In this document: positions 55,134 through 64,000 of the stretch, piece by piece
Position numbering within the stretch: the first letter of the stretch is position 1
How the letters are laid out: every line of letters begins with the position of its first letter
Origin: Mobula hypostoma
Lineage: Eukaryota
Reading direction: 5' to 3'
Assembly (NCBI RefSeq): GCF_963921235.1
Contig: NC_086097.1
Location: forward strand, 150,352,001 to 150,416,000
Length of the DNA: 64,000 nucleotides
The notes under the pieces: model-generated
The model's input: the letters and a program-made list of their open reading frames with translations, nothing else
Databases searched by the model: none
Told to the model about the DNA's origin: nothing
Program-made: the position numbers and the translations under genes

Positions 55134-58100
55134 CTTTCATTCCCGATGTGGGCATATAATTCTGGGAGTTCAATTTATCATAGATATATGACACTATCCG
55201 TCCTGGAGCACTCTATCCAACTTAAAATGGGATGGTCCTTTAAATCTGACCCCCCCAGGGAATGCCGTAGGCTTTACAAGCTGATCTTACTTGAAAATAG
55301 AAGAAAAGAGAATGTTTATCAATATTATATCGAGATATCAGTTCTTGAAAGCTAAGGATGGTACATGCCCCATTAATATCTAGAAGAGTAGTAATACCTT
55401 TATCCTCCCAAGTTCTGTTAGTGAATGGTTTCCCTCCAGATAGAAAGCGATTATTGTTCCATAATGGAGATGATTTACACCATATGCTTTTAAATTTTAG
55501 GAATTTTTCTGCTGCGGTAAACACTTGTAGTATATGGGTTAAAATTGGACCGTAATACAAATCACATTTTTTGGTAGACATACCTATAAGGAGAAAGTCC
55601 TTCAGCCTTATTGGTGCTATTAGCTCTTGTTCTATATTTTTCCATGAAACTTTATCCTTCTCCATCCAATAGCTAAGCCTTTTTAATGCAAATACCCAGT
55701 GATACAATTTAAAATTTGGACATGTCAATCCCCCATCTGACTTTTTGAATTGTAGAGCTGACCATTTTATATTGGGTCTTTTACCATTCCAAACATAGCA
55801 TCGTAGTAAGGAGTCCAGTTTTTGTTAATATCCTGCTGGAGGTGCAAGTGGGATCATTGAGCTGATAAAATTAATGCGGGGTAAGATGTTCATTTTAATG
55901 ACCGATATACGGGCCAGGACTGATGCTGGCAGGTGTCTCCACCTATTAATATCTTCCTCTATTTTTTTTTCAGAATTAAAGAATAATTTGATTTAGCCAC
56001 AGATGATAGGGAAGTATTAACTTTAATACCCAAGTAGAGGACTTCATTTGTAACCTTAATCTGGGGAGGAAAAGACATCTTACTTTTATCTGTATTAATC
56101 AGCATCAATGCTGATTTTAACAAATTAACTTTGTATCCTGAAAGAAATCCAAATTACTCCAGTGTTTTTAAAACATAGGGGAGAGTTTGTTGAACATTTG
56201 CCATATAAACTAGCGTGTCGTCCACGTAAAGTGATATTGAATGCGATGTTGTACTTATTGTAATAGGGGAGATCTGAGGAGAGTTTCTAATTAAATGTGC
56301 AAGCGGTTCAATAGATATATTAAAAATTAAAGGAGGCAAAGGGTCCCCTTGTCGTGTGCCCTGTCCTATGTCAAATAACTCTGAGAAACCTCCTCCCACA
56401 CATACCCGGGCTGAAGGATTAGCATACAGTGTTTGAATCATATTGATAAATTTATCACCTAACTGAAATTCTTTTAGAACTCTTCAAAGATATGGCCATT
56501 CAAGGTGATCGAACGCTGTTTCAGCATCTAGAAGTAGCAGGCCACAGGCAGGTGGGATTTTATGTGTTGCACTCAGTACGTGTAAGAGCCGGCGAATATT
56601 ATCAGATGCGAGACGCCCCTTGATAAAGCCCGTTTGATCTGGGCTAATTATTTTCCCAACTACTGTCTCAAGTCTACTGGCTAAGACTTTGGAAAATATC
56701 TTGAGGTCGGCATTTATCAAGGAGATTGGATGGTAACTGGCACACTCCAAGGGGTCCTTACCGGGCTTAGGTATAACTGTGATCAGGGCTGTGTTTAGAT
56801 CTCTATGGAAAGCGCCATTTCCAAAAGCATAATTTAATGTTTCTAACCATACTGGTCCAAGAATATCCCAAAGTACTAGGTAAAGTTCCACAGATATGCC
56901 ATCTATACCTGGCGTACGGCCCTTATTTGTAGCTTTAACTGCTTTGAGTAGCTCATCCAGTGAAATAGGAGAGTCTGGAGTTTTGGTGTCCTCTAACGAC
57001 AATGTAGGGAGGTCTAATCCACTGAAAAAATCCATGAAGTCATTCTCAGAAGGAATTGAGCCACTTGTATACAATTCTTTAAAGTAATTCTTGAATGTCT
57101 CGTTTATTTCCTCTGTTGAAGATACTACTCCACGTTTAGCACATCTAATCACTGGTATAGACCTTTTAGTTTCCTATTGTTTGAGCATTAGAGCTAAAAG
57201 ATAGCTCGGTCTGCTGCCTTCTGCATAATACTTATGTTTGGTTATATGGATCATATTTTCTGCCCTGCTTCTTAATAAATCATTTAATTCTGCTTGTTTT
57301 GTTTTGAGTTCGTTTTCTTTTGTTATGGTGTATATCCTTTTGAGATCATTTTCCAAAACCTTACATTCGTCTTCTAAGGTGGAAATCTTTTGAAGCCGGC
57401 TTTTATGTAGGTGGGAACTGAACCATATAGTGTTATTTTGTAAGAAACCCTTGATGGATGCCCAAATCGCTGTCACATCTGAGACACTATTTTTATTTAC
57501 ATTTATAAATTCTGTCAGTTTTGTTCTCAGTTGTGATAGAAATTCGTTGTTTTTCAGAAGGGTGGAGTTAAACCTCCACCTAGTAGCCTTATTTTTAATT
57601 TTGCTATAATTAAAAGTAGATATGACTGGGTTGTGATCAGGTAGATGTCTGGGCAAAAATTCTATTGAGTGTACTAAAGGCAGCAGACCGGAGGATATAA
57701 GAATGTAATCTATCCGAGAGAAAGTTTTATGTCTTGTGGAGAGAAGGTATAGTCTTTAGCAGATGGATCATGCACCCTCCACACATCTGTTAAATTTAAA
57801 TCCGCTAGAAAAAGGTTAAGTGCTTTGGAAGCAGATTCTTGAGAGCTTGATATAGTTGAGGAAGATTTATCGAGGTTAATGTTTACCAAAGCATTCATGT
57901 CCGAACCAACATATAGTTGGTAGTCACTTAACTTCAGTAATTGAGGGAAAAAAATTCAACCTCGAATATAGTTGGGGCATATAAGCTAATGAATGCAACT
58001 TTTTTACCCTGAATGGATGTACAGCAAACAGCTGTATAAAAAGACGTCCTTTATTGTCAGTGCCCATCCTTTCAATTGATACATTAATATTACGTCTCAT

Positions 58101-58528
58101 TACTATCATAACTCCTTTCGTAAGAGTACCATCAGCTGATGCCACAACAGGTTTATAAAAATGGTTTTGAACCCTGGGAATGTCATTAAGTTTAAGATGT
58201 GTTTCCTGTAACAGCGCAATATCTATTTTCTTTCTGCGTAAGAAATGTAAAACCTTTGAAGGCTTGTAGGGAGACTTTAATCCTCTAACATTAAATGATA
58301 CAATCGTAAAATTTTCTAATTTATCTGTGTTGCTCATCTTCCCCGGATCTGTTGTTGTAAGTTGGTGGTGGAGCCTTGAGTTACCCCCTTCCCACCCCCC
58401 TCCCATCACCCCTCCCATTCAACCCTTTACTTTGTAACATCTGTGTGTCACTTAGCAATGTCAGACACCGAACACTGACATCAACCGCCCCCCTTCCAGC
58501 ACCAACAAATTAGAAAGGCAAAGCAGTT

Positions 58529-59170
58529 AGACAATAGACAATAGGTGCAGGAGTAGGCTATTAGGCCCTTCAAGCCAGCTCTGCCATTCACTGTGATCAT
58601 GGCTGATCATCCACAATCAGTATCCAGTTCCTGCCTTATCCCCATAACCTTTGATTCCGCTATCTTTAAGAGCTCTATCCATCTCTTTTTTGAAAGCATC
58701 CAGAGACTTGGCCTCCACAGTCTTCTGGGGAAGAGCATTCCGTATATCCACTCTCTGGGTGAAAAAGTTTTTCCTCAACTCCATTCTAAATGGCCTACCC
58801 CTTATTCTTAAACTGTGGCCTCTGGTTCTGGACTCACCCATCAGCGGGAACATGCTTCCTGCCTCCAGCGTGTCCAATCTCTTAATAATCTTATATGTTT
58901 CAATAAGATCCCCTCTCAGCCTTCTAAATTCCAGAGTATGCAACCCCAGTCGCTCCAATCTTTCGACATATGACAGTCCCACCATCCCAGGAATTAACCT
59001 TGTGAACCTACACTGCACTCCCTCAATAGCAAGAATGTCCTTCCTCAAATTTGAAGACCAAAACTGCACACAGTACTCCAGGTGTGGTCACACCAGGGCC
59101 CTGTACAGCTGCAGAAGGACCTCTTTGCTCTTATACTCAATTCCTCTTGTTATGAAGGCCAGCATGCCAT
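58529..59170 (-). mobile_element. CR1 3' end inserted in the L1 inter-ORF region
   Basis: ORF 58617-59069 is nearly the same as the C-terminus of 26861-27628; (TATTGTC)n tail. Confidence 0.92.
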
Positions 59171-59654
59171 TAACAGTTCTCATAGACAATCATATGAAAG
59201 AGACAAGAAAAAAGAAACCTGGGCAAAGCCGTTAACCTATATAAGTCAAACAGTTTCCGTCTCACATATATTGTAACACATGATCAAGATCCCAACAGCT
59301 ATCTTGCAAGAAACTGTCGCTTCAATAGACCGTCGCTTAGCGATGGCGCTACTGATGTCTTATCTGGTGCCCAGAAATGTAAGCGAGTCCTACTGGAGAC
59401 ATTACATTCTAAAGTTAGTCAGAACAAACTGCTGTCTTTCAGCTTCATTCTTGATGAAGTATTACATTTGGGTATATTGAATATTACCTTAAAACTCTGA
59501 CCTGCAATAATCAGAAACAAATTGGCCCCTTAATTAACTAAATACGAAGGTGCAACAAATGACTTTCCGATAAAAGAATAACCAGAAAACTTCACACCTA
59601 GAATGTTAACTTGCCTGTGCCTGATAGATTGCGCATACAGGCTAGTCCGAGCTC

Positions 59655-60575
59655 TTAATGCCGTCTCATCTCCTCCCAAGGGGTGTGTGGACTTTGCCCA
59701 GGGTCTTCTTCCATATCTCCCAGCACAGATGATTTCAGAACTTCTTTCGCTACCTCTGCTGAGTTACACGACATCTTCATGCCCTTGATATTCACTTTCA
59801 AAATTGCTGGGTATATGAGGTACGAGTCGATCCACTTCTGTCGAAGTTTAGCGCGGATCTCCTTGTATCTCTGCCGTTCCTGCATCATGCCGGGGCGGTG
59901 GTCGGCGAAGAACTGCAGCTGGGTGCCATCAGGGAGAGTAGGTTTGGCTTTCCTCACATCCTCCAGCATAACCTGCTGGTCGGAGTGCCGTAGAAGCTTA
60001 AAAATCATGGTCTGCGGTCTTGAGGTGTTGTTGGAAAAGATCCTATGTGCTCTATCGATGTCCAAAGGAGTGCTGTGGGAATTCTTGAGCGCTGGAATCC
60101 AATTAGGCAGCATCTCCTGGAGGTAACCTCTTGGATCATCGCCCTCAGCACCTGTCGGTAAGTTGACCAGCCGCACATTGTTTCTCCTGGATCTGTCCTC
60201 CAAGTCGTTTAACTTCTTCCATATCTTAGACACTTCCGTGAGACAGGAGTTAGTAACTTTCTCATTCTTGCTTAAGCAAACCTGAATGTTGTCTATTTTA
60301 TTGAAGACCGTGTTAAATTTTTTAGCGTGAATGTCCGCTTGCTCCTTTAACGACCGGAGAATGTTGCCATTCTCTGCCATATGCTTCTGTATGGGGTCAA
60401 GAGCCTTTTCCAGCAACTCCTTTAGCATGTGGGCTACCGTTTCTTGCAGCAATTCCAACTCCGTTGCCATTCTTTGTTTAATTAGCATAGCTATTTCTTC
60501 CAATGAATCGCTAGCTTGTTGTCGTCTGCTGGTATCTTGTTTCCTGGTTGAATTTGTATCTTTTTTTGAAGCCAT
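59655..60575 (-). CDS. L1 ORF1p (coiled coil, RRM, CTD), 306 aa
   Basis: Uninterrupted ORF from MASKK with 'LEDRSRRNNVRLVNLP', 'IDRAHR' and 'YPAIL'. Confidence 0.88.
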   Translation of the reverse strand: MASKKDTNSTRKQDTSRRQQASDSLEEIAMLIKQRMATELELLQETVAHMLKELLEKALDPIQKHMAENGNILRSLKEQADIHAKKFNTVFNKIDNIQVCLSKNEKVTNSCLTEVSKIWKKLNDLEDRSRRNNVRLVNLPTGAEGDDPRGYLQEMLPNWIPALKNSHSTPLDIDRAHRIFSNNTSRPQTMIFKLLRHSDQQVMLEDVRKAKPTLPDGTQLQFFADHRPGMMQERQRYKEIRAKLRQKWIDSYLIYPAILKVNIKGMKMSCNSAEVAKEVLKSSVLGDMEEDPGQSPHTPWEEMRRH

Positions 60576-60660
60576 GTCTTTAGTTAGATCTTTCTCCAAC
60601 TCAACCTTGTTTTAAGACCATCTATGAGCCCTGAAGAACTTGAAAAAGGAGGGTTGTATG

Positions 60661-63600
60661 TGTGGTAAACCATATATATGTTGTAACTGGGTTACCTGTC
60701 TGGACACACCCCTCTGCTGACTGCCCCTGTGGCTCCTCCCACAGAACCCTGAACAAAGATGATTTCGCCTTGCCCTCCCCGTCAGTCCCGGGGGCAGACA
60801 CTCACCATGGAGGCCGTATTGTACAGTGAATAAAAGCCTTTCAGTATTTTACCCAACTTCAGTCTTTTGGAGTTATTGAAGGTGCTTCAATTTTATTCGC
60901 TGTAAATTTTAAAGCATGGAACATCCTCTGAGACCCAACAATTTAGACCTCGATCCGCAAACGCCTGAAGCTGGAAATGCTTTCGACCTCTGGCTGGCCT
61001 GCTTCGAAGCGTACCTAGAGGAGGTTAAAGCAACTGACACCATAGTGAAGCGCAGAGTTCTACTCTCCAGGGTCAGTCCACAGTTCTATTCACTGATCAG
61101 AGACCAGCCGAGCTATGACGGCGCGATGAGCGCCCTCAAAGGACAATATCTGCGGCCCGTAAACAGCGTCTATGCGCAGCATTGCTTAGCGACACAGCAA
61201 CAGCGGCCCGGGGAATCAAGTGCTGAGTTCGTCCAGGCCCTACGGACGCTCGTGCGAGCCTGCAATTGCCAGGAGCTGACAGCGGCGCAGCATGCAGAAC
61301 TCCTAGTGAGGGACGCCTTCGTCACGGGGACCAGGTCAGTGTATGTGCGCCAGTGGCTGCTGGAAAAAGCCGATCTTACCTTAAGTTCGGTGATTGAGCT
61401 GGCCAACATGCTGGAGGCCGCTCTACATAACTCCGAGGCTCTCCAGGCACGCGATCCCCCGATGGCCTCGTGGGAGCTGCAGACCCCGCAACCTGCCGGT
61501 GAATCGACCTCGGCTGCCGCCAGTCGCGAGTCTGCGAAGTGCTACTTCTGCGGACTCGAGAAGCACCCCCGTAAACGCTGCCCGGCCCGACAAGCTACCT
61601 GCTCCAGCTGCGAAAAGAAGGGCCACTTTGCCAAGGTCTGTAAGTCCAAACCGCGAGCGAGATCGAGCAGCACCGCATGCGAAACATGGGGGTCGCCATC
61701 TTGCCTGCCGCCATTTTCCCTGCACACCGCCACCACGTGCGAGACATGGGGGCCGCCATTTTCCCTGCACGCCGCCACCACGTGCAAGACATGGGGCAGC
61801 CATCTTGGTTGGCGCCACCTCGCACCGCCTACGACCAACGGGTGCTCACGGGGCACCCCACCGTGCCGGACCAAGACGGCGACTCAACCCTGGCCTCCGT
61901 GACCCTCGACCAAAGCGCTCCCCACCAGCTCGCAAGGTCAGTGATGGACATCCTGGTGGGGGGGGCGCAGGACAAGCTGCCTGTTTGATACAGGCAGCAC
62001 AGAGAGTTTTAACCACCCAGACTCGGTGCAGCATTGCGGACTCATGATACGGCCGGTAAGTCAGAGGGTCACCATGGCTTCCGGGTCGCATACAACAGAC
62101 ATCTGGGGGGGTTGTGTAGCGACACTAGTGGTGCAGGGCACAGAATATCGAGACTTTACGTTACTGGTCATGCCTCAACTGTGTGCCCCTGTGCTATTGG
62201 GGCTCAACTTCCAGAGCCACCTGAAAAGCGTGACAATGAGGTATGATGGGCCCCTCTCACCAATCACTGTCGTAAATCCCCAGTTTTGTAGGGATACGTC
62301 ACATACCCTGTGTGACGAAAGAGGGTTACAAAAAGTACACATAGATTAAGATGTTAACCGTCCTGTGCTGGCACCAGTGGGATCAACAGTTGATCTGCCA
62401 CCTGTCTTCAGGAGAAAGAGAGATAAGGAAGACAATGGAGCAGCATTTGGAAATGTTAATGAAGAGACGAGAGTTTAACGGAAGGAGACACCGGTCTGAG
62501 AACTGTCAAGATCGGCTCCTGTTTGAACCCTGAACTGTTTGAAGTGTGATGGACAGGTGATACCCCAGCAGGGGGATAAAAAGGGACAGGTTCGCTAAGG
62601 CAGGACACACACGACACCACGAGGTAACGAGACCCTGGAAGCTGTGCGTCTCCCACAAGTCGGTGGGAGTTTTTGAAGGGCTGGTCGCGGGACTGAGCCA
62701 TAGACGCACAGGGTGGAAAGGTACGATCGGAGGGAACCTGGTGTGTGTCGGCCCTTGCCTGGGTGCCAGGTTCACTGCAGGGAAACAATCGTATCTGGAA
62801 ACGGAGGGGTCACAGTTGGTGACCTCAGATGACATCACAAAGGGCTCGCCCGAAAGCTGACTGCGAGGAATATCGAAGGTCTGTGTGGAAGCCGTTTTGA
62901 ATATTCATTTGCTTTCGCCCTCTCTCTCCTTCCCCCCTCTCTCCCACGGCACGGCAGTGATAACTGTGAACTGAACTGAACTCAATTGAACTGAACTTTG
63001 CGTCACTTTGAAACTGGTCATTTACCCCTAGACGACGATAGAGCTTGATTGATCCTATTATCCTAGTTCTGTGGACATGTGTGCTTATCATTGCTGAACC
63101 GTTGCATTTATTATTCTTTCGATTAGAGTACTGTGTTGCTTATTTCTTTAATAAAACTTCCTTAGTTCCAGTAATCCAGACTCCAACTGAGTGATCCACT
63201 TCTGCTGGTTTGGCAACCCAGTTACGGGGTACATTACACCCGCTACTGACCACACACACACACCGATCCGCACATCCCACCCAACACCATGCCAACAGCC
63301 ACACTACGGACCCCACTTGTGGCCTCTCCACCCTCAAGATCCCTCCCTCACTGCTGTTCGCCAACCTGACCTCCGACTGTAAACCTGTTGCAGCTAAAAG
63401 CAGGAGGTACAGCGCGGGGGACAGAGCTTTCATTAAGTCGGAGGTGCAGCGGCTGCTCAGGGAGGGGGTCATTGAGACAAGCACAAGTCCTTGGAGGGTG
63501 CAGGTGGTCGTTGTTCGGAACAGGGAGAAGAATAGGATGGTCGTGGACTATAGCCAGACCATCAATAGGTTCACGCAGCTCGACGCGTACCCTCTACCCC

Positions 63601-64000
63601 GCATCGCGGATATGGTCAATCAGATAGCACAGTACAAGGTGTACTCAACCATAGACCTAAAATCCGCTTACCATCAGCTCCCCATCTGCCGGGAGGACTG
63701 CCCTTACACTGCCTTCGAGGCGGACGGCAGGCTTTATCAATTCCTGCGCGTCCTCTTTGGTGTCACGAATGGTGTTTCTGTCTTCCAGAGGGCAATGGAC
63801 CGGATGGTGGACCAGTGCTAACTGAAAGCCACGTTCCCATACCTGGATAACATCACCATCTGCGGTCATGACCAGCAGGATCACGACAACAACCTCCAAA
63901 GATTTCTTCAAGCGGCCAAAGCTTTCAATCTTACCTATAACGAGGACAAATGTGTGTTCGGGACCACCCGACTTGCTATACTTGGGTGTGTCGTGGAGAA
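60661..64000 (+). mobile_element. Ty3/Gypsy retrotransposon (5' LTR ~60661-60889, gag, protease, RT; runs off the window)
   Basis: Gag from 60916 has two knuckles, 'CYFCGLEKHPRKRCPA' and 'CSSCEKKGHFAKVC'. Protease 'LFDTGS'; RT 'SPWRVQVVVV..RMVVDY..DAYPLP..IDLKSAYHQ'. Frameshifts are present and there is a stop at 63819-63821. Confidence 0.9.
62311..63238 (+). mobile_element. Solo LTR inserted between the protease and RT regions
   Basis: TGTGAC...TTACA termini, TSD CCTG/CCCG, GATAAAA TATA-like site at ~62575, AATAAA at ~63150. Confidence 0.8.

Follow-up and report, generated by a model that had tools for sequence, protein, structure and literature searches.

A Gypsy element of the ray Mobula hypostoma with a primer-binding site complementary to its own LTR: probable self-priming outside the Tf1/sushi group

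The stretch of DNA analysed here, hereafter the window, comprises 64,000 nucleotides of the Mobula hypostoma genome, and at its end it holds the 5' portion of a Gypsy element, which is decayed and has inserted into the 5' UTR of a LINE. The element lies on the plus strand and begins with a 5' LTR of 229 bp with TG...CA ends (60661..60889), whose ends are set by the 5-bp target duplications of paired-LTR and solo copies. One base past the LTR comes the primer-binding site (60891..60904), followed by gag (60916..61902, seen from open reading frames and homologues), which has two zinc-knuckle-like Cys/His arrays, is frame shifted near its end and gave no match in a Pfam search. Next are a decayed aspartic protease region (61945..62310; PF13975, PF13650) and a broken reverse transcriptase region (63239..64000; PF00078), between which a solo LTR of another family is nested in pol (62311..63238, plus strand). 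This solo LTR is 928 bp long and belongs to an abundant family; other copies have 4-bp duplications, and its ends fit the rGmr1 end motifs given in Table 3 of PMC3601003. Past the window end follow RNase H, integrase, a polypurine tract and a truncated 3' LTR. The TG...CA LTRs, the target duplication, the polypurine tract and the domain order of protease, reverse transcriptase, RNase H and integrase are all as in Ty3/Gypsy, and the best PDB match is Ty3 Gag-Pol (E = 1e-56). The host LINE occupies 56154-60660 on the minus strand, with the start of its ORF1 at 60576 and with endonuclease and reverse transcriptase fragments, and between its two frames lies a fragment of the reverse transcriptase tail of another LINE (58617-59087, minus strand). 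A deletion took the remaining 5' UTR of the host LINE together with the end of the element's 3' LTR. The purine-rich flank before the LTR was considered as a tandem remnant and rejected, for it is LINE 5' UTR and is found in 7/7 other copies.

The initial annotation had drawn the LTR end at 60889 by inference, and the family copies bear this out: an exact 5-bp target duplication is present in 13 of the 20 copies fetched (counted by eye), while the remaining seven comprise three with a one-base mismatch, one tandem, two without a 3' LTR in the stretch and one with a damaged end. Solo LTRs have exact duplications at the same ends in 13/17 cases, and assembled contigs of four sequencing runs agree with these borders. 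The 3' LTR lies beyond the window, as had been stated, and breaks off at LTR position 142. Likewise confirmed at the window copy are the lack of a TGG after the LTR end, the position of an initiator-like TCAGT at 60782 and, after recomputation, the complementarity over 14 nt with one G-U between the primer-binding site and an LTR segment that contains AATAAA and ends in AATAAAA (60822..60835), which we call the arm. The G-U is a decayed CpG, and 20/29 copies carry a C there, which makes the pairing perfect. An anchored 11-nt match arose by chance in 7 of 48,000 shuffled LTRs. The site has its complement in the arm rather than in the CCA end of a tRNA. In a narrow screen for internal tRNA fragments, covering 30 tRNA loci of which almost all are tRNA-Lys, the best match was 4 nt, and two other calls were spurious. 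The predicted leader RNA (60784-60915) folds with z = -3.0, and a second stem (60836..60886) is predicted to stack on the helix of arm and primer site.

Homologues of Pol with 55-89% identity are found in rays and sharks, in a nematode and a sea anemone, and in many marine assemblies; no relatives of the element appeared in the viral contigs searched. Eight bacterial genome bins (L162-L169) also have contigs of the animal retrotransposon, probably from host contamination. Among 88 loci fetched with a Pol alignment, 41 Gag starts had sufficient upstream DNA, and in 34 of these 41 distant leaders a perfect inverted match of at least 11 nt ends at the same place, the other seven having only 6-10 nt; the complementarity is therefore conserved in relatives, the lack of which had been named as a refutation. 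From these loci 24 family representatives were picked after the pairing had been seen, and they form a selected set of 21 distinct 11-mers in which some families are related; L152 and L154, with mis-set anchors, and duplicates of the same family were left out. Over these representatives the pairing of arms with their own sites amounts to 10.96 of 11, against 7.21 across families, a value reached in none of 100,000 permutations. In an alignment of 11 rows, 121/121 cells are paired and both sides have changed in 7/11 pairs, while slid controls give 23-48%. Moreover, compensatory changes in arm and primer site are seen between subfamilies within the ray genome, so that the covariation between the arms proposed earlier as a check is present at both levels. 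In all 24 families CA and one base precede the primer site, none of the 24 sites starts with TGG, and the loops are 24-87 nt long. A helix starting at most 3 nt from the arm end is found in 19/24 families (shuffles: mean 8, maximum 14). The pairing also extends 3.7 nt beyond position 11 on average, against 0.7 by chance; since it continues past this position, the pairing RNA would carry upstream bases.

The arm ends in AATAAA in 7 of the 24 families, in ATTAAA in 6 and in another hexamer in 11, and this bears on the idea that the hairpin only hides the poly(A) signal of the 5' LTR while a host RNA of some other kind primes. From retroviruses it is known that pairing in the leader can occlude a 5' poly(A) site, and here the local hairpin can form at the 5' LTR only, so that with a canonical hexamer in 13/24 families such masking has some appeal. 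However, in the 11 families without a canonical hexamer the pairing is kept, which makes priming rather than masking the likely core role. Moreover, a single base separates the site from the LTR end in 24/24 families, and the site differs among families and tracks each family's own LTR, as a self-primer site would; masking calls for neither the constant distance nor non-canonical hexamers. Considering also that the aberrant insertions described below join the LTR end to the arm, we regard masking alone as very improbable, and masking would have at most a side role.

The ray genome further contains insertions in which the LTR end runs into an inverted copy of the arm and of the sequence upstream of it. 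For example, in L008 an LTR and one base are followed by the reverse complement of LTR positions 175 to 1, and a target duplication flanks the whole. A pattern search within the window's subfamily gave 37 extended or inverted junctions against 390 normal ones, and other subfamilies added 19 more inverted among 28 matches (the other 9 of the 28 are normal junctions and were set aside) against 164+9 normal. All 56 aberrant insertions were examined. In 41 of them the inverted copy reads back through U3 and ends exactly at or near the U3 start, 22 having a duplication detected by script; in 6, all belonging to the 37 of the window's subfamily, it passes through U3 into the polypurine tract and the internal region; and in 9 it is partial and stops early. 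In L224 the whole internal region is inverted, down to the primer site, within one target duplication. Two tandem copies with a common LTR between them (L033 and L252, reading polypurine tract, LTR, primer site) were also seen, and read-through from such tandems is another possible origin of the long inverted copies. The two arms of the palindromic copies were compared, and one template could not be separated from two in this way; about 13/20 of the palindromic insertions compared (within L194-L240) are of one LTR subfamily type.

These insertions might suggest that the complementarity is itself a functionless by-product of fold-back errors of DNA, and in fact the two arms of a palindromic insertion are usually of the same subfamily type, as fold-back would give. 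We find this hardly credible: the pairing is the normal state (390 junctions, and 34 of the 41 distant leaders), no alternative primer site is present, and L237 at least has arms of two types. A control within the same genome is given by sushi-like elements (L185-L190), which have a Tf1-type layout: a TATA-like box, an 11-nt arm about 30 nt downstream of it, and a one-base spacer. They show 232 normal junctions and no inverted one (Fisher p = 1e-7), the 5 pattern matches of the sushi-like search being chance. Complementarity alone therefore does not make inverted products, and from the lack of inverted junctions in the sushi-like elements we infer that a longer template was attached upstream of the arm in the ray family. 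The sushi arm is only 11 nt, compared with 14-16 nt here, and its shortness itself could lower the error rate.

As to how long this template was, the initial annotation had placed the start of the transcript about 40 nt upstream of the arm, and this is supported indirectly by the spacing of a TATA-like box and by the ends of the partial inverted copies. In a comparison of 62 LTRs the box lies 31-33 nt ahead of TCAGT (60782..60786 in the window) in 58, and it reads TGTATAAAGG in 22/62 and TGAATAAAGG in 30/62, its position in the window copy being decayed (60750..60759). Box and TCAGT are kept together across all subfamilies seen, while the spacing to the arm varies. The 9 partial inverted copies end at LTR 119-148, six of them within 119-131 and none at 15-118, and L212 contains exactly LTR 124-175. 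A search for LTR pieces starting at 124 returned 4 matches, the one new piece (L310) running from this start to the LTR end. These breakpoints suggest an RNA start near TCAGT, at 60784 (LTR 124). Against this reading, the partial ends adjoin a run of C, two of them show short microhomology and L210 is interrupted by an insertion; the TATA-like box reads AATAAA in 30/62 LTRs; and a cap-derived extra base was seen in none of the 9 partial copies. Among the invertebrate families, 7/24 carry an initiator-like word 11 nt ahead of the arm end and there is no common TATA position, so the long leader is supported for the vertebrate family only. An 8-nt tandem duplication between TCAGT and the arm defines a subfamily of about 50 LTRs (seen in L339-L368), and hence the leader length can vary. 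Poly(A)-tailed retrocopies that would locate the 3' end were looked for within 30 nt of the arm, and none was found.

At the other end of the arm, truncated copies suggest a cut. Of 83 loci for which the primer site or gag served as anchor, 15 show a truncated LTR, and 12 further loci were unplaceable. Four of the 15 are joined to other element sequence at LTR 164-175, and six are snap-backs, in which the strand copies the LTR end, halts at about 172-176, turns back on itself and continues into the arm; five of the six have target duplications. A search anchored at LTR 176 gave 43 matches, of which 30 were fetched; further junctions at 169-176 came from L293, L294 and the L304-306 locus among them. 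In an upstream control none of 61 matches had a foreign junction at 140-152 in the printed strings, so that the peak is compared on its upstream side only. The breakpoints suggest, together with LTR pieces starting at LTR 171-176, that the RNA is cut at the arm end (60835), and the predicted cut lies at 60835/60836 within about 1 nt. The snap-back position could instead reflect short self-complementarity. In two independent copies, L304-L306 and L329, LTR 175 is joined at one common site within the RNase H region, likely a hot spot of mis-jumping.

Taken from the sequence data, self-priming in some form seems to us very likely, and the initial annotation's proposal of a tRNA-independent primer from the element's own R region is supported both by the covariation and by the aberrant insertions joined exactly at the arm end. 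The form that we favour, and consider probable, is a Tf1-like self-priming in a non-chromovirus lineage by a primer of about 52 nt (60784..60835) whose first 38 nt stay unpaired. Arm and primer site pair, covary across families and stand always one base past the LTR, as described above. Transcription would begin at TCAGT, 38 nt ahead of the arm, and the leader would then form the arm/primer-site helix with the second stem stacked on it. By analogy with Tf1, the element's RNase H may cut at the junction of these helices, and after a cut at the 3' end of the arm the capped first ~52 nt would likely prime minus-strand DNA. The reverse transcriptase would copy only the 54-nt loop as strong-stop DNA and then jump to the RNA 3' end, where the poly(A) signal of the arm would put the tail just downstream and thus leave a short overlap for the jump. 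The primer of Tf1 is poorly removed. If the primer here sometimes stays on as well, the enzyme may read into it, copy the unpaired leader and reach the cap; by then jumping to the 3' repeat it would give the inverted insertions, which account for roughly every tenth junction. Concealment of the 5' poly(A) signal would be a hypothetical side benefit only. Against the 52-nt primer it must be said that 47/56 aberrant copies span all of U3 and 6 of these go further, so that the model needs the jump from the cap.

The long inverted copies are explained directly, without such a jump, if the 3' end of the genomic RNA primes: the arm copy in the 3' LTR, after trimming or cleavage behind AATAAAA, would pair with the primer site, and the 38 nt that precede this arm would be used for the strand jump. 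This reading accounts for the overlap of the arm with the poly(A) signal and for the upstream start; the six copies that run from the arm through U3 and the polypurine tract into the internal region (6/37), with L224 reaching the primer site inside a target duplication, are what it expects, and so are the 41/56 ending at or near the U3 start. It predicts, however, strong-stop DNA reaching the cap (LTR 124), for which there is one piece (L310) against 10/15 truncations at 164-176; the stacked stem in the ray family needs the last bases of the LTR, which are likely missing from an RNA 3' end; and a 5' piece is the better fit for those copies that end at TCAGT. Priming from the 3' end is therefore unlikely in our view. 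Similarly doubtful is its broader version, namely that in a widespread animal Gypsy lineage tRNA-free priming evolved independently of Tf1/sushi from the element's own genomic RNA 3' end, the 3'-LTR arm looping back and the inverted copies of primer RNA being integrated fossils.

A plain Tf1 mechanism is also to be weighed, in which the productive transcript starts at the arm and a 5' piece of 11-16 nt primes, while transcripts from TCAGT lead to aberrant products only. In Tf1 the pairing involves the first 11 bases, and RNase H cleaves after base 11 (PMC7175516); the shortest perfect pairing here, 11 nt, equals this length. Of 26 rows, 19 keep an A at 11 nt and 22 a G at 10 nt before the arm end, and the initiator-like word of 7/24 families falls at the same distance. 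On the other hand, subfamilies B-D lack the AG and yet keep TATA and TCAGT, no TATA-like box stands 30 nt before the arm in the ray family, the pairing continues beyond nt 11, and sushi elements with just this geometry leave no inverted copies. We hold this mechanism to be rather unlikely. For the ray family, an 11-nt primer starting at the conserved AG was demoted by the conservation of TATA and TCAGT and by the ends of the partial copies. The same AG as a splice acceptor was rejected, for the pairing with the primer site runs across it on the unspliced sequence.

The favoured self-priming by a longer leader would work as in Tf1, but on the present comparison the element is not within the Tf1/sushi group. 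As in Tf1 and Tf2 of Schizosaccharomyces pombe, Tj1 and the Tf1/sushi chromoviruses, the primer site stands just past the 5' LTR and is complementary to an LTR segment, and as in that group a helix adjoins the primer duplex (19/24 families here), Tf1 having a three-duplex structure (PMC10085805). The differences are several: the arm starts about 39 nt into the putative transcript, where Tf1 pairs from the first bases of its transcript; 24-87 nt separate it from the primer site, its pairing spans 11-19 nt and its last letters are TAAA; none of 5 proteins here matches a chromodomain or SH3_Tf2-1 (E <= 0.01); and this element leaves inverted insertions while the sushi-like copies of the same genome leave none. 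In a tree of reverse transcriptase and RNase H, 25 rows form a clade of their own apart from sushi (SH-aLRT 100, in a quick tree only), with identities of 26-32% to sushi-like and 27-30% to Mag-like copies. With its compact form, short LTRs and lack of a chromodomain the element resembles the non-chromovirus animal clades of Gypsy (Mag A-C, CsRn1, Cigr-1, MolGy). Two Cys/His arrays in Gag are a Mag-like trait, and the present element has two; it is separate in the tree, however, from the two Mag-like groups of the ray genome, which we take to be Mag from their reverse transcriptase motif. A search for a named clade in the supplements of PMC6238403 and PMC8556966, within those files that fell in scope, gave no sequence match, and a term search of the text of these papers at hand found primer sites not mentioned.

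Outside Tf1/sushi, self-priming has been predicted for the TAR lineage (Houba, Osr-1) of plant Ty1/copia (PMC6317226), which differs from the present element in superfamily, domain order and its plant hosts. The Skipper elements of Dictyostelium have no TGG primer site, and unconventional priming was proposed for them (PMC5006619); they differ in having a chromodomain, and a complementary LTR segment as seen here was not found there. In the openly available literature searched, including passages of PMC3601003, PMC4600332, PMC5341516, PMC2774666 and PMC2864245, Gypsy self-priming is linked with the Tf1/sushi chromoviruses, and no description was found of self-priming in the present lineage or of inverted aberrant insertions. 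New here are the inverted aberrant insertions, and the pairing is confirmed and extended to relatives. Whether hairpin priming is ancestral or has several origins is a question to which a second, animal-wide lineage of different geometry is relevant. The inverted insertions may be taken as a genomic record of reverse-transcription intermediates, from which coordinates for a probable RNA start (60784) and a probable cut (60835/60836) can be read with no active element needed, and the same junction screen is applicable to any LTR family. It would also explain palindromic repeats of ~405 bp which annotation would take as unrelated.
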